A DNA stretch of 46,493 nucleotides, from contig CAYRKK010000001.1 of assembly GCA_964424875.1 (NCBI GenBank), forward strand, positions 1-46,493. Direction: 5' to 3'. Position 1 is the stretch's first letter. Each line of letters opens with the position of its first letter. Positions 1 to 45,593 of the stretch are shown one piece after another. The DNA is from Candidatus Woesearchaeota archaeon. GTDB taxonomy: Archaea; Nanobdellota; Nanobdellia; Pacearchaeales; GW2011-AR1. Below the pieces are notes generated by a model. The model had not been told where the DNA came from. It saw only the letters and a program-made list of their open reading frames with translations, and did no database searches. The position numbers and the translations under genes were made by a program.

Positions 1-32
1 CCGAGCAAATATCTCCAATAATCCTAAATCAT

Positions 33-932
33 TTAAATTGTATTCAAACCCCCCGACGGAGCGTGTCTAACAATTAGTAAATAAATGCTAATTGTTTTAT
101 TATTAACCCTAATTAATAACTTAACTTGATAACTTATAATTCTTCCGAGAGTTCTTACTTGCATAACTTCCTCCTTACAGGCTTTAAATCTATCTCCAAA
201 TTCATTAGTTAAACTTCCAAACAGACTTTCTCCTCTTCCTCTTTGCCTATAACCGAGCCTGTTTTCAATTAGCCAGTAAAGTTTTCTAGCTTTTCTTCTC
301 CAATAACCATCTGTTCTTCTTTTGTTTGGACATACAATAGGTTCATATCCTTTATTAAACATAACTCCTATCGCTTTGTTTGCATCATACCATGCATCTG
401 CATAAAGTTTACCTGTTCCAGGAGGCAAACATTCTTTCACTGGATCATGTACACTATTAGTTAAAAAACTTACTCCAATTGGATAAATTGTTCCATCTAC
501 AATCCTATTAGCGACGTGAATCTCTACTTCTTGTTTATTCCAAGAAGTAAATTTTGTTGCATCAACAAAAGTAAATGTTTGTTTACATAACTTATCTAAT
601 AACTGCCCTGCTCTTGAGATAATCAATTTTAAACATCTCACAATCTCTGGCTTTTTCTCCCAATAGCTTATCACAGAATGATCTACTCTTTCTCCAATAA
701 CAAGCCTGCTTAATCTCACTTCTGCTCTTCTTAAACTATTTTTCTCAAGTTCTTTAAGAATGATTAATTGAGCATATTCAGTAGGATTATGTTTTGGATT
801 TCTCCCTCTTCCCTCCTTTTTTCTTATTAAGTGCTTACATAATCTTTTCACATTATGAAGCACAAGATTTATATTATTTATTTCTGTTGTCCATCTAGCT
901 AGCATATTAATCACCTCCTTTATGCTAAACAA
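33..932 (-). CDS. DDE transposase (IS4/IS5-like)
   Basis: Candidate catalytic D in FVDATKF and in YADAWYD. A Y-x2-R-x3-E signature (YRQRGRGE) is typical of IS4/IS5 transposases. The ORF reads through the left inverted repeat and the target duplication before stopping in flanking DNA. Confidence 0.8.
   Translation of the reverse strand: MFSIKEVINMLARWTTEINNINLVLHNVKRLCKHLIRKKEGRGRNPKHNPTEYAQLIILKELEKNSLRRAEVRLSRLVIGERVDHSVISYWEKKPEIVRCLKLIISRAGQLLDKLCKQTFTFVDATKFTSWNKQEVEIHVANRIVDGTIYPIGVSFLTNSVHDPVKECLPPGTGKLYADAWYDANKAIGVMFNKGYEPIVCPNKRRTDGYWRRKARKLYWLIENRLGYRQRGRGESLFGSLTNEFGDRFKACKEEVMQVRTLGRIISYQVKLLIRVNNKTISIYLLIVRHAPSGGLNTI
50..58. repeat. Left target-site duplication CCCCCGACG
   Basis: Identical 9-mer at 975-983, immediately outside the other IS end. 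One further C is ambiguous between the inverted repeat and the duplication. Confidence 0.7.
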
Positions 933-1018: not shown

Positions 1019-2074
1019 ATGTTAGATAAAGATAATTTCAAAGAGTTATTGAATTATATATTAGTCATTGGACTTTTTATAATAGCATTCATAGTTATAA
1101 AACCAATAATTTTTGCAATAATTTATGGAGTCTTATTTGCGTATGTTCTTTATCCAGTTTACAAATACACTTTATCAAAAATAAAAAATGAAAATGCTTC
1201 TGCTTTTATTATTTGTATGGGATTATTATTTATCCTTCTTATTTTTACTAGTATAATCTTAGGTTCTTTATTAAATCAAGTTCTTAGTCTTTATTCGTCT
1301 TTACAAAAAACAAATTTAACAAATATAATACAAAGCTCCCTCCCTGATTTCTTTTCCTCTGAACTTTCAACAAACATGGTAAGTTCAATAAACTCTTCTA
1401 TTTCAAAATTACTTGCTAAATTTGCTAGCAGTATTGGAGATTTTGTTTTAGATCTTCCTTCTTTTATTCTTCAAATACTTGTAGTATTTCTTATTTTATT
1501 TTATTCTTTAAAAGATGGAGAAAAAGCTTTTGAATATATTAAATCTCTATCTCCTTTAAAAAAAGAAGTTCAAGAAAAATTCTTTCAACATTTTAAAAAC
1601 ATAACAAAATCTGTTTTAGTAGGCCAGATTGTTGTAGGAATTTTTCAAGGAATAATTGCAGGAATAGGTTATTTTATTTTTGGAGTTCCAAATGCCCTTT
1701 TATTAACTCTCTTAACAATGATTATTGGAATAATTCCTATAATTGGACCATGGCTTGTTTGGATTCCAATTGACATTTATTTATTTGCAATTGGAAGAAC
1801 AGGGGCAGGATTAGGCCTTCTTATTTATGGATTATTTTTAATCAACTGGATTGACACAATAATAAGACCTTTAATAGTTTCAAGAAAAACTCAAATAAAT
1901 CCTGCAGTTATTTTAATTGGAATGATTGGAGGACTTTTTGTATTTGGAATCCTAGGACTTATTTTAGGTCCATTGATTTTAGCATATGTTTTATTAGTAA
2001 TTGAAATATATAGAAAACAAAAATTCGATGAAAATATAATCTTTAAAAAAATTGATGATTTTAAGAAACATTAA
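1019..2074 (+). CDS. AI-2E family (PerM/UPF0118) membrane transporter
   Basis: Polytopic membrane protein with the family-typical segment GIIPIIGPWLVWIP and the expected overall length and topology. Confidence 0.75.
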   Translation: MLDKDNFKELLNYILVIGLFIIAFIVIKPIIFAIIYGVLFAYVLYPVYKYTLSKIKNENASAFIICMGLLFILLIFTSIILGSLLNQVLSLYSSLQKTNLTNIIQSSLPDFFSSELSTNMVSSINSSISKLLAKFASSIGDFVLDLPSFILQILVVFLILFYSLKDGEKAFEYIKSLSPLKKEVQEKFFQHFKNITKSVLVGQIVVGIFQGIIAGIGYFIFGVPNALLLTLLTMIIGIIPIIGPWLVWIPIDIYLFAIGRTGAGLGLLIYGLFLINWIDTIIRPLIVSRKTQINPAVILIGMIGGLFVFGILGLILGPLILAYVLLVIEIYRKQKFDENIIFKKIDDFKKH

Positions 2075-2191
2075 TTTACTAAAACGTCTCAACAACATTT
2101 TTATACTCTTTTCTATTATTTTATTTATCTTATTAAAAGAGGCATCTTTAAAGAAAAGTTGCTTTAAGAAAACTATAGGTTGTCTTGGAAA

Positions 2192-3673
2192 ATGAAACTA
2201 AGAATAAAAAAACTAAATTTTTTAACAGGAAAACCAGTCTGCATGATTCATGAAAAAACAGCTAAAAAAATGAGCTTGCATGTTGGAGATAGAGTTTCAA
2301 TTAAAAATAAAAAGAAAAACATAATCTCAGTTATAGATACTATTTCAAAAATAATAACTCCAAGAGAAATTGCCGTCTCAAGAGATATTATCCAATATCT
2401 TAATCTCAAAAATAAAGAAATTGTTAATATAAATATAACAAAATCTCCACGTAGTATATCTTTAATAAAAAAGAAATTAAGTGGCCAAACTTTGAAAAAA
2501 CATGAAATAAAAGAAATTATAGAAAATATAGCAAATAATTCTCTAACAGAAGTTGAAATTGCATTTTTTGTTTCAGCAGTTTATATTCAAGAAATGTCTT
2601 TAACAGAAACTAAATATCTTACTCAAGCAATGATTGACACAGGAAAAAAATTAAAATTAAGCGGGAAAGTTGTAGATAAACACAGCATCGGAGGAATAGC
2701 TGGAAACAGGACAACCCCAATAGTTGTAAGCATTTGTGCAGCAGCAGGACTTAAAATACCAAAAACATCTTCAAGAGCAATAACAAGTGCTGCAGGAACA
2801 GTAGATGTAATTGAAACAATAGCAAAAGTTGATTTTTCATTAAATGAAATAAAAAAAATAATTAAAAAAACAAATGCTTGTTTAGTCTGGGGAGGAGCTT
2901 TAGGTTTAGCACCTGTTGATGATAAAATAATAAAAATAGAAAGAATAGTAAGTATAGATTCAACTACACAAGTATTAGCAAGCATTTTATCAAAAAAAAT
3001 TTCAGTTGGAAGCAAATATATATTGATTGATATTCCTTATGGAAAATCTGCAAAAGTTTCAAAATTACAAGCAAAAAAATTAAAATTAAAATTTATAAAA
3101 TTAGCAAAACAATTTAATCTAAAACTTGAAGTTGTTTTAACTGATGGAACTGAACCAATTGGAAATGGAATAGGTCCTGTTTTGGAAATAAAAGATATTT
3201 TAAAAGTTTTAACAAGAACAGATTCTCCAAAAGATTTAGAAGAAAAATCAGTTTTTTTAGCAGGAGAATTATTAGAACTTGCAGGAAAGGTAAAAAAAGG
3301 TAAAGGCATAGAAAAAGCAAAGGAGATTCTTGATTCAAAAAAAGCTTTTGAAAAATTTAAGCAAATAATAAAAGAACAACAAGGGGATATTAATAAATTA
3401 AACAAATTTAAAGAACAAATATTCCCTCATGTAATAAAAGCAAAAAGAAAAATTAAAATTAAACATATAAATAATAAATTAATCAATCTTCTTGCAAGAT
3501 ATGCAGGATGTCCTGAAGATAAATTAGCAGGAATTTACCTTCATAAAAAAAAGAATCAGATTGCAGAAAAATCAGATAAAATTTTAACTATTTATGCAGT
3601 TTCAAAAGAAAAATTAAATCATGCTGTTTATTTTTATAATAAAAATAAAGAGAAGGTTGTTGAGTTTTGGTGA
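2192..3673 (+). CDS. deoA: AMP phosphorylase (archaeal-type thymidine phosphorylase homolog)
   Basis: About 490 aa with the N-terminal extension typical of archaeal AMP phosphorylases (MKLRIKKLNFLTGKPV...). It has a pyrimidine-nucleoside phosphorylase core (SIGGIAGNRTT, TSSRAITSAAGT). ATG at 2192 is preferred over the TTG at 2180. Confidence 0.8.
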   Translation: MKLRIKKLNFLTGKPVCMIHEKTAKKMSLHVGDRVSIKNKKKNIISVIDTISKIITPREIAVSRDIIQYLNLKNKEIVNINITKSPRSISLIKKKLSGQTLKKHEIKEIIENIANNSLTEVEIAFFVSAVYIQEMSLTETKYLTQAMIDTGKKLKLSGKVVDKHSIGGIAGNRTTPIVVSICAAAGLKIPKTSSRAITSAAGTVDVIETIAKVDFSLNEIKKIIKKTNACLVWGGALGLAPVDDKIIKIERIVSIDSTTQVLASILSKKISVGSKYILIDIPYGKSAKVSKLQAKKLKLKFIKLAKQFNLKLEVVLTDGTEPIGNGIGPVLEIKDILKVLTRTDSPKDLEEKSVFLAGELLELAGKVKKGKGIEKAKEILDSKKAFEKFKQIIKEQQGDINKLNKFKEQIFPHVIKAKRKIKIKHINNKLINLLARYAGCPEDKLAGIYLHKKKNQIAEKSDKILTIYAVSKEKLNHAVYFYNKNKEKVVEFW

Positions 3674-3682
3674 GTGGGATAA

Positions 3683-3696
3683 ATGCCCCCACGATT
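3683..3696 (+). repeat. GC-rich direct repeat ATGCCCCCACGATT, copy 1
   Basis: Perfect 14-mer repeated at 5971-5984, with similar flanks (GGxTAAx upstream). Confidence 0.8.
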
Positions 3697-3755: not shown

Positions 3756-4232
3756 TTAACCAATTATTTTCTTAATTTCATCTCTTGCCTTGTCGATTTC
3801 ATCAAGAGTTATAGAATTTATTTTATTCTTTATAGTTAGAATAAATTCGCTTAATTCTCTACTATTAATCTCAACAGGTCTATTTTTAAGATAATATTGA
3901 TTGTCTATTCTTAACTCTTTATCATCTTCAAGTTTTTTAGAGCAATCTTCAGGAATTATTTTAATTTCTTCCAATAACTTTGCTATTTCGATTGTGCAAT
4001 CATGTATTTCACACTTAATCCCTAGCTTTTGAAGTAAAGCGTAAATAGAGAAGTATTCAGAATAGTACTTTGTAGTTGCCAGCCACATATTTGATTTGCC
4101 TTTAATGTCCTGCAAAACAGAAAGAGTTTCTTCTGCACTTTGTAGATATTCTCTTGCTAAATTATCATTGGATTTATCTATTTTTAAACCTGCAGATTGC
4201 TTACAACACCATTTTAATTTTTTAACATCCAT
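3756..4232 (-). CDS. HEPN-domain protein, partner of the adjacent nucleotidyltransferase
   Basis: All-helical protein of about 158 aa that overlaps the upstream MNT-type gene by 19 nt, the classic HEPN-MNT arrangement. No clean R-x4-6-H motif was seen (RIDNQYY instead). Confidence 0.55.
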   Translation of the reverse strand: MDVKKLKWCCKQSAGLKIDKSNDNLAREYLQSAEETLSVLQDIKGKSNMWLATTKYYSEYFSIYALLQKLGIKCEIHDCTIEIAKLLEEIKIIPEDCSKKLEDDKELRIDNQYYLKNRPVEINSRELSEFILTIKNKINSITLDEIDKARDEIKKIIG

Positions 4233-4771
4233 TTTATAATTTCTTCAGAGTCTTGAACTATTAAATGTTTCTTTTTTATTTCTTCTTTTAGACTTAGGCC
4301 TATTTCCCCTAATTTTTTTAAGTTAATCAAATGAAATTTTATATTATGTTTTTTTTCAAATTCTTTAAATTTATTTTTTTCAAATTCTTTAATGATAATT
4401 AAATCAATATCATTTGCATTTTTCAAATCAACAGAAGCAGAGCCAAAAATAATAACTGGATTGTTTGACTCATGCAAAAAAGAAACTATTTCTCTTAATA
4501 ATATTTCTTTAGAGCATTTTTTTATCAATTTATTCTTTTCAACTAAAACAAGATAATCTATAATTAAAGGATTAGAATAATTTAATTTGTATAATGTAAG
4601 CCTGCCTTTAATCTGTTTTACAACCACTCCCTCTTTTTCAAAATTACCCAGATATATCCTTGCTGTTGGATGCGGCATTTTTACTTCTCTTGAAATCTCT
4701 GCAAGATGTACCCATTCTTCTTTAAAAAGTAATGGTTCTAAAACTGACAATACTGTTATATTAATAACCAT
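4214..4771 (-). CDS. Minimal nucleotidyltransferase (MNT) with an N-terminal winged-helix domain
   Basis: G-S-x(n)-D-x-D signature in FGSASVDLKNANDIDLI, with an N-terminal wHTH-like region. ATG at 4771 is preferred over the TTG at 4816. Confidence 0.7.
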   Translation of the reverse strand: MVINITVLSVLEPLLFKEEWVHLAEISREVKMPHPTARIYLGNFEKEGVVVKQIKGRLTLYKLNYSNPLIIDYLVLVEKNKLIKKCSKEILLREIVSFLHESNNPVIIFGSASVDLKNANDIDLIIIKEFEKNKFKEFEKKHNIKFHLINLKKLGEIGLSLKEEIKKKHLIVQDSEEIIKWMLKN

Positions 4772-4937
4772 ATTGTTATAAATATAACAGTAGTATTTAA
4801 ATGTTTTGTTAGGCAAAAAATTTAAAAAGCATATATTTTATTATATTAATACCCCCCTAGGGGAAGAGTTCTGTGTAGTACTTTTTATTACGAAATTTAT
4901 AACACATTTTGATACACAAAGTGTGATACTTTTTGTA

Positions 4938-5792
4938 TTACTTTTTTCTTGCTAGATATTGGACAAAAAGGCTTTTTTCTTTCTTTTCTTCTTTGAAATT
5001 GTGATATACCTTTTCTATCACAAAATCCTTACTAAGTATCTCAATCATATCTTGTTGGTAAATTGGGTATAAGTCTAATTTGCTCCATTTCTTATTTTTC
5101 TGGTCATAATAATGAATAACAACAACCGTGTCACTTATATAGGCTGGGAAAGCAATTATATCCTTTTGGAATCCATGATAATAAACCGTGTAATCAAATG
5201 AAAAGTTCTCAAGAATTTTTTCCTTAGGTAAATTTGTTAGTGATCTAATGTAATCATAATTTCTAGAATCAATAAACAAATATCCTCCTTTTTTTAAAAG
5301 GCTAGCAAATTTATCAACAACTATTTGCTGAGCTTTTTTTGTGTATTCTCGAGTTCCTCCACCTATATAAGTTAGAGAGTTTCCTGTTAAAAAACCAAAA
5401 TCAAATAAATGGGTATATGGAGGTTCTGCTTTTGGTAAATCTAACCAATTAGCTTTATGAATAATCACTTCTGGTTTATTTTGTTTGAATAATCTATCCG
5501 CTTGCCTAATAAACTCGTCATCTACCTCATTTGCTTCAGCACCATCTAAATGATAGTTTCTTTCTTTTAGCCCTTGTATAATCCCGTTTAATTCTGTTCC
5601 TCCACCAACACCAAAATCAATAACACTTTTTAGTTTACGTTTAATTATCAAGTTAAGGAAAAAATCTCTTTCTTCTTCTTTTATGTTTCCTTTAAATTTA
5701 GGATAAATATATTTTTCCCAGCTAACAAATTTAAAATCAGAAAATTCTTCTATTGGGTTACTAACATATGGGAGAGTATTAACAAATGACAT
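4938..5792 (-). CDS. Class I SAM-dependent methyltransferase (glycine/sarcosine N-methyltransferase-like)
   Basis: Motif I VIDFGVGGGTE. Also ANWLDL and GNSLTYIGGG segments reminiscent of GNMT-type enzymes. ATG at 5792 is preferred over the CTG at 5873. Confidence 0.65.
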   Translation of the reverse strand: MSFVNTLPYVSNPIEEFSDFKFVSWEKYIYPKFKGNIKEEERDFFLNLIIKRKLKSVIDFGVGGGTELNGIIQGLKERNYHLDGAEANEVDDEFIRQADRLFKQNKPEVIIHKANWLDLPKAEPPYTHLFDFGFLTGNSLTYIGGGTREYTKKAQQIVVDKFASLLKKGGYLFIDSRNYDYIRSLTNLPKEKILENFSFDYTVYYHGFQKDIIAFPAYISDTVVVIHYYDQKNKKWSKLDLYPIYQQDMIEILSKDFVIEKVYHNFKEEKKEKSLFVQYLARKK

Positions 5793-5970
5793 TCTATTAA
5801 AGTAAATATATTGTCCTTTTAAAAGATTTCCAATAATCAATTTAGGAAAACTCGGGGAGCGTTGAACCAGCAAAATTCAGTAAAAAGCTCTCAAAAATGT
5901 GAAAAAAACACGAAATGGATTTCCGTCGATAAAACGAAAAAACTATGTGAGATTATTAACCTTAGGTAAC

Positions 5971-5984
5971 ATGCCCCCACGATT
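5971..5984 (+). repeat. GC-rich direct repeat ATGCCCCCACGATT, copy 2
   Basis: Perfect copy of 3683-3696. Confidence 0.8.
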
Positions 5985-8736: not shown

Positions 8737-9315
8737 TTAAGGTCTTTCCTCCTGTTTATTTAATTGAATTTGAAATTCATCTTCTTCATCTAAGAATATC
8801 TCTTCTCCACCTAAAGTTAAAATATTCTCATAATCTCCTCTTAAATCTTCCAATTCCTTAAGCGCTAAATTTTCAATTCTATTATTTCCTATTAAATATG
8901 CTTTAACAGTCATTCTATAAAGTTCTTCATTTAATTCTTTTGCTTCTTGAAAATCCCATCCTCCAACTGCTTCTCCAAACTCTTCTTTAAGTTGTTGATA
9001 AGATTCTCTAAAACTTCTTGGTTTTATTTCCTCTGATTGATTTAGTTGAGCATTTTTTAATTCCCTTAATATTTTTGCTTGTTCACCTAAATACTTTAAT
9101 TCTTCTCCAACTAATTCTTTTTCTTCTGAATCTTTTAAATCAAAATATAATTCTAAAAGTTTATCAATATATGGCCCATTTGTTCTTAATGCCTTTTCAA
9201 CATCAACAATAGTTTCCCCTATTTCTTGATAATGATTCTCTCTAACTTCAGGCAATCCCTTTATAAAATCTTCAGGCAATCTAGCTATTAATCTTTCTAA
9301 TAATTGTTTATTCAT
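8737..9315 (-). CDS. Uncharacterised Glu-rich helical protein inserted between P0 and P1
   Basis: 192-codon ORF in AT-rich DNA. Its ATG overlaps the P0 stop (ATGAATAA), and its TAA lies 1 nt before the P1 ATG. Confidence 0.6.
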   Translation of the reverse strand: MNKQLLERLIARLPEDFIKGLPEVRENHYQEIGETIVDVEKALRTNGPYIDKLLELYFDLKDSEEKELVGEELKYLGEQAKILRELKNAQLNQSEEIKPRSFRESYQQLKEEFGEAVGGWDFQEAKELNEELYRMTVKAYLIGNNRIENLALKELEDLRGDYENILTLGGEEIFLDEEDEFQIQLNKQEERP

Positions 9316-17122: not shown

Positions 17123-17752
17123 ATGAAACCAATAATAATTATAAATTTTAAAACTTATAAACAAGGCAAGAAAGTAGTTGATTTAGCAAAAAAAATTGAA
17201 AAAGTAAGTAAAGATATTATCATAGGGGTTCAGGCAAATGATATTTATGAAGTTGCTAAAGCAACTAAACTAAAAGTATTTTCAGAACATGTTGATTATT
17301 TTAAACCAGGAAAATATACTGGTTATATTATTCCTGAAGCTATTAAAAAAGACAAGGCTGTTGGAAGTTTTTTAAATCATTCTGAACATAAATTAAAATT
17401 TGATGTTTTAGTGAAGAGTATTAAAAGATGCAAAGAAGTAAAATTAAAAACTGCTGTATTTGCAAAAGATTTAAAACAAGCAAAAAAAATTGAAAAACTT
17501 AAACCAGATTTTTTAATTTATGAACCTCCAGAATTAGTTGGAGGAAAAGTTTCAGTAAGCAATGCAAAACCTGGAGTGATTAGCAAGATAAAGAAAAATC
17601 TTAAATGTAAATTTCTTGTTGGTGCTGGAATTAAAAATAATGAAGATGTTAAAACAGCTATAAAGTTAGGTGCAAGTGGAATTGCTGTTTCAAGTGGGGT
17701 TGTGAATGCAAGGGATCCTGAGGGGAAGTTAAGGGGGTTGTTGGAGAGGTAG
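17123..17752 (+). CDS. tpiA: Triosephosphate isomerase (short archaeal form)
   Basis: INFKTY, LNHSEH and YEPPELVG motifs, in about 209 aa. Confidence 0.85.
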   Translation: MKPIIIINFKTYKQGKKVVDLAKKIEKVSKDIIIGVQANDIYEVAKATKLKVFSEHVDYFKPGKYTGYIIPEAIKKDKAVGSFLNHSEHKLKFDVLVKSIKRCKEVKLKTAVFAKDLKQAKKIEKLKPDFLIYEPPELVGGKVSVSNAKPGVISKIKKNLKCKFLVGAGIKNNEDVKTAIKLGASGIAVSSGVVNARDPEGKLRGLLER

Positions 17753-34569: not shown

Positions 34570-35046
34570 TTATTTTTTTAAATTAAATTTTTCCCCTCTT
34601 TCTAATTTTTCTAATTCTTCAAGATATTCCTTCACCCTATTAATTATTTGAGGAATAATAAACTTTTCAATATTATTTTCAAAAATTTCTTTTAAACATA
34701 ATTGCTCTATTAAATAATAGTCATTACTATTCTTTTCAATAATCATAGCATCTCTAAGTCTCTTCAATTGTCGTCTAATATTTGATTCAGCTAACCCTCT
34801 ATTATCGAGACTATATTTTTTTCTAACCTCTTCAGCCCTTTTTCTAATCTCCTCACTACTTAGTTTTCTTTTATTCTTATTTGCCCCTATTAAAACCATT
34901 AAAATATCAACAATAACATCTCGTGAATCTCCAAGCTGGAGTAATCCTAAAGATAAACATATTTTTCTAATTAATTCTCTTTTTTCTAAACCAAATGGTT
35001 TTTCATATTTTCTTAAAGTTATTTCAGATAATGGAATGTCTTTCAT
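34570..35046 (-). CDS. Putative winged-helix transcriptional regulator (conserved archaeal hypothetical)
   Basis: Helical N-terminal region with a wHTH-like pattern (RELIRKICLSLGLLQLGDSRDVIVDIL). Confidence 0.4.
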   Translation of the reverse strand: MKDIPLSEITLRKYEKPFGLEKRELIRKICLSLGLLQLGDSRDVIVDILMVLIGANKNKRKLSSEEIRKRAEEVRKKYSLDNRGLAESNIRRQLKRLRDAMIIEKNSNDYYLIEQLCLKEIFENNIEKFIIPQIINRVKEYLEELEKLERGEKFNLKK

Positions 35047-35501: not shown

Positions 35502-35717
35502 ATGAGAGATGATAAATTAATCCTCCCTTTTGAAGAACTTAAAGACTTACAGAGGGGTCAAGAAAGAACCTTTGATTTCAAGGAACATCAAGAGCTTCCT
35601 AGAAACGCTGTTTTAATTGATAGAACTGGCGGAGAATATTACAGTGCTGAAAGACTCTCAATTCAATCTTTGGGAGATTCATTAATAGCAATTTACAGAA
35701 TAGTTGAAGTTTATTAA
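35502..35717 (+). CDS. Orphan 71-aa protein, Arg-rich relative to neighbours
   Basis: Intact ORF whose stop overlaps the convergent taw1 stop by 4 nt. Hand count 7 Arg against 3 Lys. Confidence 0.4.
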   Translation: MRDDKLILPFEELKDLQRGQERTFDFKEHQELPRNAVLIDRTGGEYYSAERLSIQSLGDSLIAIYRIVEVY

Positions 35718-36727: not shown

Positions 36728-37069
36728 TCATAAAAATCCCTCTTCTCCTAAATTTCTTAAGACACTCTTAATTTCATCAATAACCTTTTGTTGTGTTTTC
36801 TTATCAGACATCATGACAAATTTTATTAAAAGATCTTTTAATTCTTCAGATTTCAAAAGTTTTATTTTAAATCCATCAACAATAAAATAAAATCGATAAG
36901 ATTTATATCTTAATTCTTTAATTAAAATCCTCCCAACACAACTAACTGGTTTTCCTTTTTTAGGAGAATCCTTAAGAGAGTACATTAATTTAATAATTTT
37001 AATAGATTCTTTTTTGAATTTTTTATTAATTTCTTCTTCTAATTTTTTTGTTATTATCACCCTTGCCAT
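36728..37069 (-). CDS. RelE/ParE-like type II toxin
   Basis: KELRYKSYRFYFIVDG resembles the RelE core. It overlaps the upstream antitoxin-like ORF by 13 nt. Confidence 0.5.
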   Translation of the reverse strand: MARVIITKKLEEEINKKFKKESIKIIKLMYSLKDSPKKGKPVSCVGRILIKELRYKSYRFYFIVDGFKIKLLKSEELKDLLIKFVMMSDKKTQQKVIDEIKSVLRNLGEEGFL

Positions 37070-37263
37070 CTTTTTTTAGCATTTGACAGGGCTTCATCTA
37101 TTTTAATGCAATCTTCTTCACTCATTAATAAATCTTGCAATTGTCTCTCTTTTGCACTTTCAAGTAAACGCAAAATTATTTCTGTATAAGTTTCTCCTTT
37201 ATTCCCAAATTCTTGAATATCCTCCTTTAAAGGTTTTGGTATAGCAATAGTTGTAGTTTCCAT
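37057..37263 (-). CDS. Ribbon-helix-helix-like antitoxin
   Basis: TTIAIPKPLKEDIQEF...YTEIILRLLE pattern, at the first position of a two-gene overlapping module. Confidence 0.55.
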   Translation of the reverse strand: METTTIAIPKPLKEDIQEFGNKGETYTEIILRLLESAKERQLQDLLMSEEDCIKIDEALSNAKKRWQG

Positions 37264-37491: not shown

Positions 37492-38346
37492 TTAGGTTTT
37501 TGCTCTAATAGAAACTAGAACCTGTCCATAATCTCCTTGTTTCCTATCATAACTTGAAAGATATTCTTCTGGAAAAATATCAACATTAAAACTCCTTCCT
37601 TTCTCATCTGCAAGTTGTAATATACGGGGGCTCCATTTTCTAAATTCTTGTAATCCATTAACAAGTCCTTTCTTGCCATTAAAAACCTTTGAATAGGCTG
37701 TTCCTTCATCATAAATCAAATCACCTTCTTCTAAAAATAATAATTGCGTATTATCTCCTATTAATGAAGTAATTGCCGGATGTGGAATATTTCCTCCTAT
37801 CTTAAGATTAGCATACTCTCTTTTTTCATGATGAACTCCAATTGATAGAAAATGAGCTCCTGCAATCAAACTTGGAAATCCTTTTTCATCAATCAAGGTA
37901 TTGACATTAGGAATTTTCATATCTACTCCTGAAGATTCTGGATGTTTTAATCTTCCTTCAAATCTCATTTGTTTTGCTATTAATATGTTTTCTAAATTGG
38001 CTTCATCAATAACTTTGCATAAGTTTCTATAATAACTAAATTCTCCTTCAACAACAATAATAGGTAAATCCATATGGGGTAAAGCAAGTCTTGAAAATTC
38101 TTCATAAAGAGATAGTGGATGGCACCTTTCAAATTCTTTTTCAAAATCACCTGATGTTCCACAACCTGGAAATGGATTTTTATTTTGAGTTTGTAGATAT
38201 CTAAATGCAATTTCTTTAATTCTTTTATGATTAGAACTTACAGCACTATCTAAATCCGTACCTCCATCAATTGTTTTCTTACAAAGGGCTGAAAATATTT
38301 CTATAGGTCCTACTGGACCAGGCCCTAAAAATAATGAATAATTCAT
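37492..38346 (-). CDS. Orphan 284-aa protein of unknown function
   Basis: Long intact ORF with atypical composition (Gly/Pro/His/Arg-richer), flanked by unusually long intergenic regions of 228 and 295 bp. Confidence 0.6.
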   Translation of the reverse strand: MNYSLFLGPGPVGPIEIFSALCKKTIDGGTDLDSAVSSNHKRIKEIAFRYLQTQNKNPFPGCGTSGDFEKEFERCHPLSLYEEFSRLALPHMDLPIIVVEGEFSYYRNLCKVIDEANLENILIAKQMRFEGRLKHPESSGVDMKIPNVNTLIDEKGFPSLIAGAHFLSIGVHHEKREYANLKIGGNIPHPAITSLIGDNTQLLFLEEGDLIYDEGTAYSKVFNGKKGLVNGLQEFRKWSPRILQLADEKGRSFNVDIFPEEYLSSYDRKQGDYGQVLVSIRAKT

Positions 38347-40292: not shown

Positions 40293-40457
40293 TTACTTCT
40301 TCCTCACAGGTCTAAACGCCCTCTTCAAACATTTTCTACATCTAATCTTACCTTCAATAATTTTACGAGGATCTGCCCTAATTTTAGACTTGCAATTCTT
40401 GCAGACAAACATGTTTTTATACAATCTTGCTTGCGTTACTGGTAATTTTGTTGCCAT
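40293..40457 (-). CDS. rpl40e: Ribosomal protein eL40 (L40e)
   Basis: 54-aa ORF absent from the ORF track: MATKLPVTQARLYKNMFVCKNCKSKIRADPRKIIEGKIRCRKCLKRAFRPVRKK, with a CxxC...CxxC zinc ribbon. Confidence 0.8.
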   Translation of the reverse strand: MATKLPVTQARLYKNMFVCKNCKSKIRADPRKIIEGKIRCRKCLKRAFRPVRKK

Positions 40458-40481: not shown

Positions 40482-40871
40482 TTAAATCTTCCTCTTAATT
40501 ATTTTAGCTCCTTCAACATCCCAATACTCTACTTGATCTCCTTCTTTTAAATCTTCTTTTAATTCTTCAGGAATAACTATCTCTAATGTTTCAAAACTTT
40601 CTAAATCCATAACACTTGCTTTATCACTTGAAATGGATAATAATTGTGCTTTATTTTTATTAATCAAAGGAACATCTAATCTATCATGCCCACTCATTGC
40701 AAAAACCTTTTTTTTACCATCAATAATCCCAATAGCTTCAATCCTGCATTTAGCATGCCCATGCTTTCCTGTTTTTGAAATATCATTAGAACGAACAATA
40801 CAAGCCACATCATCAACAATAATTGCACTTCCTTGTCTAGCCTCTGTTGCATTAATTAATTTAAATGCCAT
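40482..40871 (-). CDS. eif5a: Translation initiation factor 5A
   Basis: Hypusine-loop motif SKTGKHGHAKCR and an OB-fold C-terminal domain. Confidence 0.9.
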   Translation of the reverse strand: MAFKLINATEARQGSAIIVDDVACIVRSNDISKTGKHGHAKCRIEAIGIIDGKKKVFAMSGHDRLDVPLINKNKAQLLSISSDKASVMDLESFETLEIVIPEELKEDLKEGDQVEYWDVEGAKIIKRKI

Positions 40872-40927: not shown

Positions 40928-41561
40928 TTAAGTTCTATAAAATTCTCTTACAGCTTGAGTTATTTTCTCCAAACCTTCCTCCTCTGATCTATAAAATATA
41001 CTTGGATGTTTTTTTAAATCAAACTCACTTGTAACTTCAATTTGAGAATCTTGTCTATAAAAATAAATTCTTGGTTTTTTTGATTCCATGGCACACCCTC
41101 CCACTAATCCCATTATAAAAGAAGGAAGCCCATCAGGCAAAAGAAGTGAAGGAGTTTCTGCATCAAATAAAATCAAATCACAAAAAGGTACAATCCTTCT
41201 TCTCATTATTTCAATAAGCTGGCTCCCAGACCATTGATTCTTCTTTTTTTCATAACCTCCAGTTATTCCTCTACCTTCTAATTCTCGATTTATTCCTTCA
41301 TTAATAGGAGAACCACTTAAAACACTTCCCCCCTTCTAACATTTTTCCATAAGTTTCTTGAAACAATTCTTCCTTTGTTAAATTTCTTTTTATTTCTTTA
41401 TGTGGAAGAAATAATCTTTTTCTTAAGTCTATTAATGAATCTGCAATTTGTCCATAAAAATCAAATCTTTCTCCATTTGTTTCACATCTTTCATAAGGAG
41501 CTGCTAAAACAACTTCAAATCTTGAATTATAATCCTCTCTTGACATTTGTTCATCAACCAT
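40928..41561 (-). pseudogene. Orphan gene of about 210 codons split by a 1-nt frame change at a C6/G6 homopolymer
   Basis: ORF 41301-41561 and the frame containing ORF 40928-41206 are both open across 41301-41335. Deleting one G of GGGGGG (plus-strand C-run 41328-41333) fuses them into one reading frame. Confidence 0.5.
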
Positions 41562-41653
41562 CTTAAAACAAATTTTAAATCCTATAAAAAGATTATTATT
41601 CCCAATTATAAATATTCCAATAATCTTTTAAACCCTTATTTCAGTCTTTAATC

Positions 41654-42454
41654 ATGGAAAAAAACAAAATCCAAAAAAATGATTTTATTGAAATAGAATT
41701 TACAGGAAAAGACCCAGATAATCAGATTTTTGATACAACAAATCCAGAAGAAGCAAAACAAATAGGAATACAAAATCCAGAACAAATAAAATCTATGATA
41801 ATCTCTGCTGGAAATCAAATGCTTTTAAAAGGTTTAGATGAAGCAATTTTAGATAAAGAACTAAACAAAGAATATAAAATACATCTTGAATCAGAACAAG
41901 CTTTTGGAAAAAGAAACCCCCAACTAATGAAAACTTATCCATTATCAGCTTTTAAAAAAAGAGAAATAAATCCTTATCCAGGATTAGTCCTTCAACTTGA
42001 CAACAATATTGCAAAAGTTATCTCTGTTTCAGGAGGAAGAGTAATGATTGATTTTAATAATCCTTTAGCAGGAAAAGAAGTTGATTACACCTTTAAAATA
42101 ACAAAGAAAATCACAAATGACAATGAAAAAATAAATGCCCTTCAGGATTTCTTTTTTAAACAAAGATTTGATTTTAATATTAAAGAAGATGAGAAAACAA
42201 AATCTAAAAAAATTGTTTTTAAAGATGAAAAAATTAAACCCCTCGTTGAAATGATGGCTCAAAAATTTAAAGAAATAACTGGAATGGATTTTGAGGTTGA
42301 AGAAAAGAAAGAAGAACTTAAGAATAAAGAGAATAAACAAGAAAATAAAAATAAAGAAGCTAAAGAAGAGTCTAAAAAAATTGAGGATAAAAAGGAAAAC
42401 TCTAAGAAAGAAAAAGAAGAAGGAAAACAAGAAACAATAACTACAAAACAATAA
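41654..42454 (+). CDS. FKBP-type peptidyl-prolyl isomerase (archaeal long form) with a Lys/Glu tail
   Basis: The motif is DFIEIEFTGK...IFDTT...GLDEAILDK...NPLAGKEVDYTFKI, followed by a low-complexity KE-rich C-terminus. Confidence 0.8.
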   Translation: MEKNKIQKNDFIEIEFTGKDPDNQIFDTTNPEEAKQIGIQNPEQIKSMIISAGNQMLLKGLDEAILDKELNKEYKIHLESEQAFGKRNPQLMKTYPLSAFKKREINPYPGLVLQLDNNIAKVISVSGGRVMIDFNNPLAGKEVDYTFKITKKITNDNEKINALQDFFFKQRFDFNIKEDEKTKSKKIVFKDEKIKPLVEMMAQKFKEITGMDFEVEEKKEELKNKENKQENKNKEAKEESKKIEDKKENSKKEKEEGKQETITTKQ

Positions 42455-42485
42455 TTATTTTAAACTCTTAATTATTCTAAAAAAT

Positions 42486-42845
42486 ATGGAAGATAGAGAT
42501 TCAAGAAGGAAATTAAGTCAAGAATTAATAAGGATGTTGGGAGAAGGAGTTAATTTTTATTTGTGTGATGATGGCAGAGTTTTACATGTTTTCGGAGGAG
42601 GTTTAACAGGAGATAAAAGATGTTTTAGACAAGAAGATTATTGGGTTTTTCATAAACAAGAAAGAGCTGGTAGCTTAAGGTGTATTTATGAAGGATCTAC
42701 TAATGAACTAGTTGTTCTTCATCTAGAAATTTATGGAGAAACTCCATTATCTGTTAATGGAAAAAAATGGTATTCTGGAAGGAACTTTGAGCAACAAAAA
42801 ACTTGGACAAGCAGAGATGATTTTATTATTCCTCAAGTTGCTTAA
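42486..42845 (+). CDS. Orphan 119-aa protein, Arg-rich relative to neighbours
   Basis: Intact ORF between FKBP and ftsZ. Hand count 11 Arg against 6 Lys. Contains Trp, Cys and His. Confidence 0.5.
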   Translation: MEDRDSRRKLSQELIRMLGEGVNFYLCDDGRVLHVFGGGLTGDKRCFRQEDYWVFHKQERAGSLRCIYEGSTNELVVLHLEIYGETPLSVNGKKWYSGRNFEQQKTWTSRDDFIIPQVA

Positions 42846-42947
42846 TCATAAAAAAGAAGGGACTTCAAAACAACTCTAAATCATAATCTTCCAAAGTACA
42901 TATTAAGATTTAACAATCTTTAAATATCAATCCCCTTTCTTTTTCAA

Positions 42948-44216
42948 ATGGAAGAGGATTTTGAAAAACAAGATTATCTAAAAGAGGAATCAGATAATCC
43001 ATGGGAAGAAACATCTGAAAAACAATCAAGTTCATCAGATGATTATTCTTATAAACCTGATAAAGAAACTTCTTCTCAACCACCCATATCTTCTTTTCCC
43101 AAGCCTTCTCCAATAACACCTGTTTCTCAACCAAGACCTTCTTTAATAATTGATAAATCATCAGAACTTTCAGAAATAGATAGAGAATTAGAAGAAATAC
43201 TTAAAAAACAACATGCTAAAGTAAAAGTCTTTGGTTTAGGAGGTGCAGGAGGAAATACAATTTCAAGAATGAAAGAAATTGGAATTAAAGGGGGAGAGTT
43301 TATTGCATTAAACACAGATGCTCAAGATCTTTTATATTCAAATGCAGATTATAAGATTTTAATTGGCAGAGAATTAACAATGGGCTTAGGAGCAGGTTCA
43401 AATCCCAAAATTGGAGAAGAAGCAGCTCATGAATCAGAACAAGAAATCAAGAAAAAATTAGCAGGATGTGACATGGTTTTTATAACCTGTGGTTTGGGCG
43501 GAGGAACAGGAACAGGAGCAGCACCAGTTGTTGCTCAATTAGCAAAAAAACAAGGAGCACTAACAATAGGAGTTGTAACCTTGCCATTTACAATTGAAGG
43601 AAAAAAAAGAATTGAAAACGCAGAATATGGTTTAGAAAGATTAGAATCAATTGTTGACACTTTAATTGTAATACCAAATGATAAACTATTAGAAATTGCC
43701 CCCGAATTACCCTTACAAACTGCATTTAAAGTAGCAGATGAAATTTTAACAAATGCAGTAAAAGGAACAACAGAACTTGTAACAAAATCAGGTTTAGTTA
43801 ATTTAGATTTTGCAGATGTTAAAGCAGTTATGGCTAATGGAGGAGTTTCTTTAATGGGAATGGGTGAATCAGATTCCGCTAACAGAGCTTTAGAAGCAGT
43901 TGAAAAAGCATTGTCTAATCCTCTTTTAGATGTTGATATTTCAAATGCAACAGGAGCTTTAGTTAATATTATTGGAGGGAATGATATGAGTTTAGATGAA
44001 GCTCGGGCAATTATTGCAGCAGTTGGAGACCAACTTTCTCCAGATGCTAAAATGATTTGGGGAGCTCAATTATCCCCTGAAATGGAAAAATCAATTAGAG
44101 TTATGATAATAATAACTGGTGTAAAATCAGCCCAAATTACAGGAGGAGTTTTACCTTCTGATTTACAAAAACAAGTTGAAATGGGAGATGAGTTGGGAAT
44201 AGAGTTTTTGGAGTAG
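42948..44216 (+). CDS. ftsZ: Cell division protein FtsZ with a ~85-aa Ser/Pro/Glu-rich N-terminal extension
   Basis: GLGGAGGN and the tubulin signature [12 protein letters not shown]. Confidence 0.9.
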
Positions 44217-44310
44217 ATGCCCTGATTGAGTGTTCATTACTTCTTAGGAATAAAGAATCAGATGGTATTATAAAGAGTAGTTCATAGATTATTTTTTTGA
44301 ATCATGAACC

Positions 44311-44664
44311 TTGGAAAATAGAATAGAAGAGCGTAGAAAGGAATTATTTGCAATAGCTAATGCTTCCGGATTCCCAGAAGAGGGATCCAATCATGTAAAA
44401 CATATATCTGGAAATTTGTTGAATGGTTTAAGTTGTGTTATTCAATTAGTTTATGAGTTTAATGATCCAAGATATGCTGAAGAGGATTTACCAATATCAG
44501 ACAGAGAAATAGGTGAATATTTATTGCTCTTAGAAGAGTATGATGATTATAGGGAGGGAGAGTTTAACAATTCAAATGGTTTCTTTCCAGATATACTTGA
44601 TTTTGGATCAGATCATGGTGCCCATCATTATGTTACTGAATCAAGATCAAGATTAGAAAAATAA
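44311..44664 (+). CDS. Orphan 117-aa acidic protein (TTG start)
   Basis: Intact ORF between ftsZ and secE. It has no in-frame ATG, so a TTG start at 44311 is required. Hand count 8 Arg against 3 Lys. Confidence 0.4.
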   Translation: MENRIEERRKELFAIANASGFPEEGSNHVKHISGNLLNGLSCVIQLVYEFNDPRYAEEDLPISDREIGEYLLLLEEYDDYREGEFNNSNGFFPDILDFGSDHGAHHYVTESRSRLEK

Positions 44665-44732
44665 AATCCCTCAAAACATTTAAAAACTACTCTCTCCATT
44701 TATTTTTACTAAACAAACAAAGTTTCCATACG

Positions 44733-44906
44733 ATGTTCAACCTAAAATCATTTTCAAAACAATGCCTAAGAGTCTGGTATCTTTTGAAAAAACCAGATAA
44801 AAAAGAATTCACAACAATTTCAAAAGTTTCTGCAATTGGATTAGGCTTAGTAGGTTTAATTGGTTTTGCAATAGCATTAGTAATGGAATTTTTCAGATTA
44901 TCATAA
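44733..44906 (+). CDS. secE: Protein translocase subunit SecE (Sec61-gamma)
   Basis: 57-aa ORF absent from the ORF track: MFNLKSFSKQCLRVWYLLKKPDKKEFTTISKVSAIGLGLVGLIGFAIALVMEFFRLS. One C-terminal TM helix; canonical position upstream of spt5. Confidence 0.75.
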   Translation: MFNLKSFSKQCLRVWYLLKKPDKKEFTTISKVSAIGLGLVGLIGFAIALVMEFFRLS

Positions 44907-45020: not shown

Positions 45021-45593
45021 ATGATATTTATAATAAAAGTAACAACAAATAAAGAAGACAGAGCATTAGAATTAATCTCTGACAAAATCCATAAGAAAGA
45101 ATTGCAAGTATACTCTTTAGCACGTCCTCATGGGCTTAGAGGTTATATTTTCTTAGAAGCAGAAGACAGAGATTCTGCAGAAGAAGCAGCTTATAATTTA
45201 CCTTATGTTAAAGGAATTATTGGTAAAACAGTTTCTTATGATGAAATTAAAAACATGTTAGAACCTGTTTTAGAAGAAATTAATATTGAAAAAGGAGATA
45301 TTGTAGAGATTATCGGAGAACCATTTAAAAAAGAAAAAGCAAAAGTAATCAGAATTGATAAATCAAAAGGAGAAGCAGTTGTTACTTTATTGGCAGCAGT
45401 TGTTCCAATTCCTGTAACAGTAAAATTAGATAATATAAAAGTTATAAGAAGAGAAAAAGAAGAAACAGAAGAATCAGATTCTAAACCAACAGGTGAAATA
45501 GAAGAAGAAACAATTCCATTAGGAACAGACGAACCAAAAATAAACAATGAATATCAAGAACCAACAGGAGGATTAATCCCAGATGATTATTAA
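45021..45593 (+). CDS. spt5: Transcription elongation factor Spt5 (NusG) with an acidic C-terminal extension
   Basis: NGN domain (IFIIKVTTNKEDRA...GYIFLEA) and KOW motif (GDIVEIIGEPFKKEKAKVIRID). Confidence 0.85.
   Translation: MIFIIKVTTNKEDRALELISDKIHKKELQVYSLARPHGLRGYIFLEAEDRDSAEEAAYNLPYVKGIIGKTVSYDEIKNMLEPVLEEINIEKGDIVEIIGEPFKKEKAKVIRIDKSKGEAVVTLLAAVVPIPVTVKLDNIKVIRREKEETEESDSKPTGEIEEETIPLGTDEPKINNEYQEPTGGLIPDDY

Follow-up and report, generated by a model that had tools for sequence, protein, structure and literature searches.

The window analysed here, 46,493 nucleotides of contig CAYRKK010000001.1 from a Candidatus Woesearchaeota archaeon (assembly GCA_964424875.1; 1.12 Mb in 130 contigs, 28% GC, 75% complete), contains six open reading frames (ORFs) that belong to no recognisable family and lie between conserved genes. 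These orphans are the subject of this report: o1 (40928-41561, minus strand), o2 (42486-42845, plus strand), o3 (44311-44664, plus strand), o4 (8737-9315, minus strand), o5 (35502-35717, plus strand) and o6 (37492-38346, minus strand). The first three interrupt a row of housekeeping genes with the order aIF5A-FKBP-ftsZ-secE-spt5-L11. A sequence-only reading of this DNA, made earlier without database searches, had described the orphans as foreign-looking insertions and possibly as a dispersed family of mobile or host-interaction genes. Our analysis points instead, with a probability of about 0.7, to real, independently acquired, species-specific accessory genes occupying permissive junctions, which would act as gene-turnover hot spots of a backbone kept across the order.

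Backbone genes and conserved gene order

The backbone genes were identified by their Pfam domains: aIF5A (40482-40871, minus strand; IF5A-like_N and eIF-5a), which is syntenic and 64-77% identical in congeners; an FKBP26-type peptidyl-prolyl isomerase with a Lys/Glu tail (41654-42454, plus strand; FKBP26_IF and FKBP_C), syntenic throughout the genus and order; ftsZ (42948-44216, plus strand; Tubulin and FtsZ_C), present in 49 of 49 genomes of the genus; secE (44733-44906, plus strand; SecE), syntenic in congeners; Spt5/NusG (45021-45593, plus strand; Spt5-NGN); and ribosomal protein L11 (45779-46444, plus strand; L11 N-terminal and RNA-binding domains). A zinc-ribbon gene (40293-40457) adjoins aIF5A. 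The genome carries two FtsZ genes, and its relatives are of groundwater type; together with its small size, these traits make a DPANN-type archaeon likely.

The congeners used for comparison were the 48 other genomes of the genus, all of them related but incomplete metagenome-assembled genomes. The order aIF5A-FKBP-ftsZ-secE-spt5-L11 was maintained at the FtsZ loci from 30 of these 48, with spacers of about 60 to 1330 bp, and the same gene order was found in 27 genomes from other genera of the order, where the gap between ftsZ and secE ranged from 31 to 860 bp. The same flanking pairs of core genes, a feature by which hot spots are recognised, therefore recur in many genomes (30 loci in the genus and 27 in other genera).

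Within this row, the ORFs and their Pfam-identified neighbours confirmed the earlier placement of orphans between aIF5A and FKBP (o1), between FKBP and ftsZ (o2) and between ftsZ and secE (o3). The accompanying statement that every gap holds an orphan was too broad: three of the five junctions from aIF5A to L11 do, and secE/spt5 and spt5/L11 do not.

Orphan ORFs and their relatives

None of the orphans gave a significant match in Pfam, PHROGs, PADLOC, NCBIfam or PDB sequence searches, in agreement with the earlier remark that they have no recognisable domain, and no Rfam family was matched in the window. Neither o2 nor o3 was found in 24 genomes of the same genus and 16 others of the same order, and the syntenic regions of six congeners contained nothing corresponding to o4, o5 or o6.

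The ORF pair at o1 represents a single accessory gene of about 210 codons, broken into ORFs of 86 and 92 amino acids (aa) on the minus strand (41301-41561 and 40928-41206). The break, already suspected by the sequence-only reading, is a +1 frameshift at the only G6 run (plus-strand C-run 41328-41333), and dropping one G restores a 210-codon frame. An intact homologue of 159 aa adjoins aIF5A in one congener (G023; L033 2868-3347) and aligns across both halves of o1 (tblastn, E 8e-16). The frame of o1 is interrupted relative to this homologue, as in a pseudogene. The two proteins share 27-46% identity at the same junction, whereas the ftsZ genes of the same pair of genomes are about 87% identical. 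An assembly made independently from another sample has the identical o1 sequence, including the G6 run; the read-through product had no match in a word-indexed protein search.

The o2 product is a soluble protein of 119 aa from a rare family with the invariant motifs FGG.LTGD, Q.DY and GK.WY. A word search of 5.8e9 proteins returned o2 alone, whereas a full HMMER search over 1.84e9 representatives recovered two relatives of the same length, with 62% and 30% identity. The contig encoding the 62% identical relative (P0003) was not found in scans of genome contigs. A homologue of the distant type was located on a Hainich groundwater contig of about 32% GC (L056, 1260-1613), where it is flanked on one side by rpS2 (2-829, minus strand) and on the other by a full-length archaeal 16S rRNA gene (1987-3423) with a tRNA beyond it, and where it is preceded by an in-register TATA element. 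A profile of the o2 family gave one marginal match among 400 genomes of the order. These comparisons support o2 as a member of a real, very rare and patchily distributed family whose housekeeping junction differs between AT-rich archaea. In other assemblies containing it, the o2 locus was either identical or chimeric at one end; on an ENA contig of the latter kind (ERZ27248954; L054, positions 1-98, with an identical o2), a divergent FKBP 5' end is joined to otherwise identical sequence, and this divergent end stems either from a co-occurring variant strain or from chimeric assembly.

The o3 product is a very acidic ORFan of 117 aa (isoelectric point, pI, 4.6) that can start only at TTG and contains no Met; no relative was detected among 5.8 billion protein clusters or in 40 related genomes. 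An SH3 fold was considered for o3 and rejected: the PDB hits were below threshold (E 0.3-0.6), no Pfam SH3 family matched at E<=1, and the low-confidence model was entirely helical. Single-sequence AlphaFold models were of low confidence for both o2 (predicted local distance difference test, pLDDT, 47) and o3 (pLDDT 45).

The remaining orphans lie further upstream in the window. The 193-aa ORFan o4 is packed between rpl10/P0 and rpl12/P1 (flanking genes identified by Pfam); its ATG overlaps the rpl10/P0 stop codon by 8 nt and its own stop codon lies 1 nt from the rpl12/P1 ATG. This tight coupling suggests that o4 is co-translated with the ribosomal stalk proteins. In congeners the same junction measures about 0-315 nt and holds no o4 homologue. 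The 71-aa ORFan o5 lies between a conserved 115-aa gene and Tyw1, and o6, an ORFan of 284 aa without family matches, is situated between a RelE-like toxin-antitoxin pair and an S2P protease.

The orphan proteins are acidic and soluble (pI 4.6-6.3). No signal peptides were predicted, and no hydrophobic segment fitting secretion or membrane anchoring was found; the earlier proposal of host-interaction genes thus gained no support from features that would mark surface proteins.

Coding potential and DNA composition

Stop-free stretches of 118-135 codons, as found in three of the gaps, were rare in shuffled sequences (P 0.0005-0.0025). A codon log-likelihood score was trained on long host genes, with in-frame and off-frame chunks of host sequence as controls. 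The orphans scored 0.36-0.60 in frame (o2, 0.56; o3, 0.41; o4, 0.60; o5, 0.36; o6, 0.45) against 0.47±0.16 for host in-frame sequence and a mean of -1.25 for off-frame sequence, and virtually none of the off-frame controls attained the orphan values. For o3, the score of 0.41 compared with -0.7 or lower in the other frames. Only in their own frame do the orphans score as coding.

The GC content at third codon positions (GC3) was 0.14-0.18 in the orphans and 0.10-0.19 in the neighbouring genes, and the orphans share the host preference for AGA and AGG, which make up 27 of the 29 Arg codons of o1, o2 and o3. At the protein level, the Arg/(Arg+Lys) ratios of the orphans (0.62-0.73) rank in the top 4-9% of same-sized ORFs, the genome median being 0.27. 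The Arg:Lys counts previously made by hand were accurate (11:6 for o2, 8:3 for o3 and 7:3 for o5), as was the contrast drawn with triosephosphate isomerase (TIM; 17123-17752), which has 4 Arg and 41 Lys (ratio 0.09). This contrast nevertheless exaggerates the skew, because genes for translation and glycolysis are at the Lys-rich end of the scale. When seven syntenic regions of about 48 kb were compared, the median ratio was 0.30 for singleton genes and 0.22 for genes shared by at least three genomes (Mann-Whitney p about 1e-6, calculated on non-independent data); the Arg skew thus represents a general and milder trait of the variable gene pool.

The claim that the composition of the orphans differs from that of host genes thus held at the amino-acid level and failed for GC3, codon log-likelihood and Arg codons. 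The orphans are indistinguishable from host genes at the DNA level and are Lys-poor and Arg-rich at the protein level alone. A foreign origin judged by composition was accordingly rejected, with GC, GC3, codon log-likelihood and Arg codons all host-like, and in this lineage the Arg:Lys skew is an unreliable marker of foreign DNA.

Promoters and the position of the inserts

The upstream regions of 458 long genes showed a sharp TATA signal at -29 to -22 from the ATG, an A-rich element resembling the B recognition element (BRE) at -36 to -32, and no Shine-Dalgarno signal. The TATA spacing, together with the lack of a Shine-Dalgarno signal, makes it probable that leaderless transcripts dominate in this genome. 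A position weight matrix (PWM) was built from the genome-wide TATA signal, and scores were compared with those of random sites and long host genes.

Upstream of o2 (region 42455-42485, plus strand), a TATA-like element, TTATTTTAAAC, occupies 42455-42465 and ends about 21 nt before the ATG; its PWM score of 4.97 at shift 0 falls in the top 2.5% of random sites and exceeds the scores of 64% of long host genes, and the o2 transcript is probably leaderless. The o1 promoter is in register with the o1b ATG (PWM 4.95, top 2.6% of random sites) and o5 has a TATA element scoring 5.10 at shift -5, so that o1, o2 and o5 all rank in the top 2-3% of random sites, on a par with the FKBP and ftsZ promoters. 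For o3, whose expression signals are weaker than those of o2, the TATA (44267-44275) lies about 40 nt upstream, with a predicted leader of about 15 nt; the TTG-only start, the absence of Met and the lack of an in-register TATA make its expression uncertain.

The promoters of the downstream backbone genes have been retained. The predicted ftsZ core promoter, AACAATCTTTAAATATC (42912-42928, plus strand; PWM 4.97 at shift 0), lies downstream of o2, and in about 25 congeners the upstream alignment showed, at -38 to -22 relative to the ftsZ ATG, the element gCAATAATCTTTAAATA, which hardly varies within the genus. Similarly, a secE TATA element, CATTTAAAAAC (44677-44687, plus strand), is retained just past the o3 stop codon, and aatTTAAAAACCC was found upstream of secE in most congeners in the corresponding alignment. 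As the ftsZ and secE promoters persist right upstream of their start codons regardless of the insert, the inserts fall between the stop codon of the upstream gene and the promoter of the downstream one. Judged by these promoter positions, the backbone would be a row of separately promoted genes rather than one operon, and the cluster may tolerate serial interruption for that reason.

These data bear on the view that the orphans are not functional, being chance or relic frames or recent de novo ORFs in expanded intergenic DNA. This view owes its place mostly to o3, which has no ATG or Met, no in-register promoter and no homologue; o1 is frameshifted, and the two AlphaFold models are of low confidence. 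However, the frames are far longer than shuffles permit at 28% GC, the codon log-likelihoods are central among host in-frame values and are reached by virtually no off-frame control, the o2 motifs are conserved at 30-62% identity, o1 is conserved across species, and o1, o2 and o5 have canonical promoters. We therefore consider a non-functional origin improbable and, on these coding and promoter signals, regard the orphans as real genes, with o3 the least certain.

Turnover at the junctions in related genomes

Occupancy of the junctions was scored by counting any ORF of at least 60 aa with a host-like codon score as an occupant, with the window included in the tallies. The FKBP/ftsZ junction was occupied in 8 of 25 loci and ftsZ/secE in 11 of 25; lower counts were obtained for aIF5A/FKBP (3/15) and secE/spt5 (2/14), and no occupant was found at spt5/L11 (0/8) or between the zinc-ribbon gene and aIF5A (0/10). 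The Tyw1/S2P junction was occupied in 4 of 5 loci, but the occupants in two of them (G005, G049) were not novel inserts: they were copies of the conserved genes 34570 and 35117 that have moved. Across the approximately ten junctions compared, the accessory load ranged from 0/10 to 11/25. Between FKBP and spt5, 21 occupants were co-oriented with the backbone and six were opposite. The closest relative with a tight arrangement (G063) had no ORF at any of these junctions, with gaps of 102-149 bp.

Occupants of the same junction were mostly unrelated across species, the pattern of turnover expected of a hot spot, and their sizes ranged from 60 to 282 aa. Among ten of the larger ones, six have no Pfam domain, and the rest comprise a pterin-4a-carbinolamine dehydratase (PCD), an SPFH protein, a methyltransferase and an HTH_17 protein; one occupant is a putative cytidine deaminase, on the strength of its motifs only. 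The o2 family is patchy and occupies a different location in another lineage. The DNA composition of the orphans is host-like.

The earlier suggestion of insertion into a conserved cluster was thus upheld relative to congeners, o2 and o3 not having been found in the 40 related genomes searched and the G063 junctions being empty. The accompanying view that repeated insertion is unusual found no support for this lineage, as the same junctions are filled by other genes in about one third to one half of congeners and also in other genera. When presence and absence were mapped across genomes, the backbone was constant and its fill variable; of the orphans, only o1 had a counterpart at the same junction, in G023.

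The main rival explanation is that the occupants are positional orthologues, that is, ancestral small junction genes inherited vertically and diverged past recognition, which would make them old genes of the lineage and not insertions. The o1 homologue fits this explanation, at the same junction in G023 and far more diverged than ftsZ of the same genomes, as do small families each limited to one junction: one at FKBP/ftsZ in five species (29-66% identity) and pairs restricted to two species at secE/spt5 and to two at aIF5A/FKBP. Many occupants also resemble one another in length (100-120 aa) and run in the direction of the backbone, and the codon usage and promoters of the orphans are host-like. 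The gaps of many congeners are, on the other hand, too short for any gene, as in G063, the wide range of occupant sizes goes together with distinct known folds (PCD, SPFH, methyltransferase and the putative cytidine deaminase), profile alignment (hhalign) of the o2 family and of o3 with every junction occupant in congeners gave probabilities of at most 5.4%, and an o2 relative sits at an rpS2/16S junction elsewhere. We regard positional orthology as an unlikely general explanation; the single-junction families at FKBP/ftsZ and of o1 with its G023 homologue do imply that part of the pattern is vertical inheritance with loss.

Tests for a mobile gene family

According to the sequence-only reading, the orphans might form a dispersed family, either mobile or engaged in host interaction, inserted at housekeeping junctions. 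The orphans do share a bias (more Arg than Lys, acidic) and a junction location, the o2 family is found at two housekeeping junctions in two lineages, and the genome has mobile DNA, in the form of a DDE-type transposase (Pfam DDE_Tnp_1; 33-932, minus strand; Arg:Lys 27:26) at the start of the contig. All-against-all comparison nevertheless revealed no similarity among the orphans, with BLASTP E values above 0.01 for all pairs and hhalign probabilities of at most 1.1%, as is not expected of a single paralogous family. Nor is any orphan dispersed in the genome: tblastn against the 1.12-Mb assembly (75% complete) returned each orphan alone, and no paralogues were found. A family common to the orphans was rejected on these grounds, the occupants of congeners included.

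Mobile-element hallmarks were likewise missing from the borders. No transposase, integrase or recombinase domain was detected between 34.5 and 46.5 kb, the transposase at 33-932 being the only one in the window, and there were no significant direct or inverted repeats at the orphan borders, no PHROG or PADLOC match and no export-type hydrophobic segment. Two candidate signals were discarded. A 9-bp inverted repeat around o3 (AGAGTAGTT / AACTACTCT) was considered as a terminal repeat, and 12% of random genes have one of at least 9 bp; an ATGCCC(C)TG motif beside o3 and o6 had no consistent link with the orphans, its hexamer occurring 18 times in the window on both strands and often inside genes. 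We consider a single mobile family highly improbable, the least credible of the explanations weighed here.

Interpretation

The reading we favour, at the probability of about 0.7 given above, is therefore gain and loss of independent accessory genes at permissive junctions. Most backbone genes would have their own promoter set for leaderless or short-leader transcripts, those of ftsZ and secE being conserved in the genus; DNA inserted after a stop codon but ahead of the following promoter would therefore have no polar effect. As these promoters would spare the core genes polar damage, the junctions may act as hot spots of gain and loss. Acquisition would proceed by recombination via the conserved flanks, from a gene pool common to related AT-rich archaea, and the acquired genes would have resided in AT-rich genomes long enough to show host codon usage and host-type promoters. 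On this account o1 would represent the loss side of the cycle, already decaying by a homopolymer frameshift.

Several observations weigh against this reading. Neither a donor nor a recombination tract was seen, nor any empty-site allele within the same population; the hot-spot label derives from about ten sampled junctions in related, incomplete genomes; the FKBP/ftsZ family in five species and the junction-restricted pairs are more readily accommodated by inheritance; o3, with its TTG-only start, no Met and no in-register TATA, is of uncertain expression; and the AlphaFold models of o2 and o3 are of low confidence. Our best guess for the orphan proteins is a niche-specific or conflict-related role.

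A bolder version of gain and loss would treat the junction ORFans as promoter-carrying single-gene cassettes that circulate among AT-rich DPANN-type archaea, are swapped without integrases by recombination at core-gene and promoter flanks, and supply fast-evolving conflict-related or host-interaction proteins. The occurrence of the o2 family at two housekeeping junctions in two lineages and the position of the inserts between stop codon and conserved promoter are compatible with such cassettes, which we nonetheless consider a long shot.

Accessory genes acquired independently at permissive junctions would show on a small scale how a streamlined archaeal genome of symbiont type retains an ancient housekeeping order yet exchanges genes, its junctions tolerating inserts because the core genes carry their own promoters. 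For annotation, ORFans in 'operon-like' clusters of this lineage should be treated as real genes and not as artefacts, and the junctions around ftsZ offer convenient sampling points for the flexible gene pool of these uncultured archaea.

Other features of the window

Three further features were observed. A block of about 23 kb (approximately 11022-34400) carries sugar and glycolysis genes, including TIM, and a radical-SAM/pyridoxal phosphate (PLP) cassette; it sits between L1 (10190-10831) and a gene at 34570-35046, which are adjacent in five congeners, and compared with the gene order of the genus it appears to be a large island or rearrangement. Tyw1 and S2P are separated at 36728-37263 (minus strand) by an insert that encodes a RelE/ParE-like toxin of 113 aa and, upstream of it, a small partner of 68 aa; paralogues of the toxin are present on contigs C58 (59% identity), C72 and C3. 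Finally, a 14-bp direct repeat, ATGCCCCCACGATT, at 3683-3696 and 5971-5984 brackets a 2.3-kb segment (genes 3756-5873) that was not found in the syntenic regions of congeners and looks like a bounded island.

Comparison with known systems

The 'morons' of lambdoid phages are single genes with their own promoter located between conserved co-oriented genes. The junction genes resemble them in being one-gene units with their own promoter, placed between a stop codon and the signals of the next gene and present or absent among relatives, and differ in lying on a cellular chromosome with no prophage context, no PHROG match and an undeviating DNA composition.

Genes and islands of archaeal 'dark matter' are especially abundant in DPANN archaea, and some DPANN dark-matter families are 'typically in house-keeping context' (Makarova et al. 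2019, PMC6393860). The orphans are similarly short, narrowly distributed and unannotatable proteins of a small AT-rich genome; those families, however, are conserved across many DPANN genomes, whereas o2 and o3 are species-level ORFans and the orphans are scattered singly, with no contiguous island.

Two gene segments, ftsZ-secE-spt5 and L11-L1-L10-L12, are known as conserved clusters in archaea (PMC10833476). The backbone described here is the former cluster, extended upstream by aIF5A and FKBP throughout the order, while in this lineage L11 stands apart from L1-L10-L12 and the junctions are leaky rather than tight.

The closest parallel to the turnover itself is provided by chromosomal hot spots of gain and loss between core genes, which occur without recognisable mobile elements (Oliveira, Touchon & Rocha 2017, PMC5635113). 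Those hot spots were defined statistically within bacterial species, whereas the present candidates extend across species of an archaeal genus and order and involve single small genes; in both, the same core genes bound a content that differs by turnover and not by nested loss, with no integrase or transposase. Calling for no new mechanism, system or mobile family, the orphans represent ordinary genome flux and a new instance of known genome dynamics.

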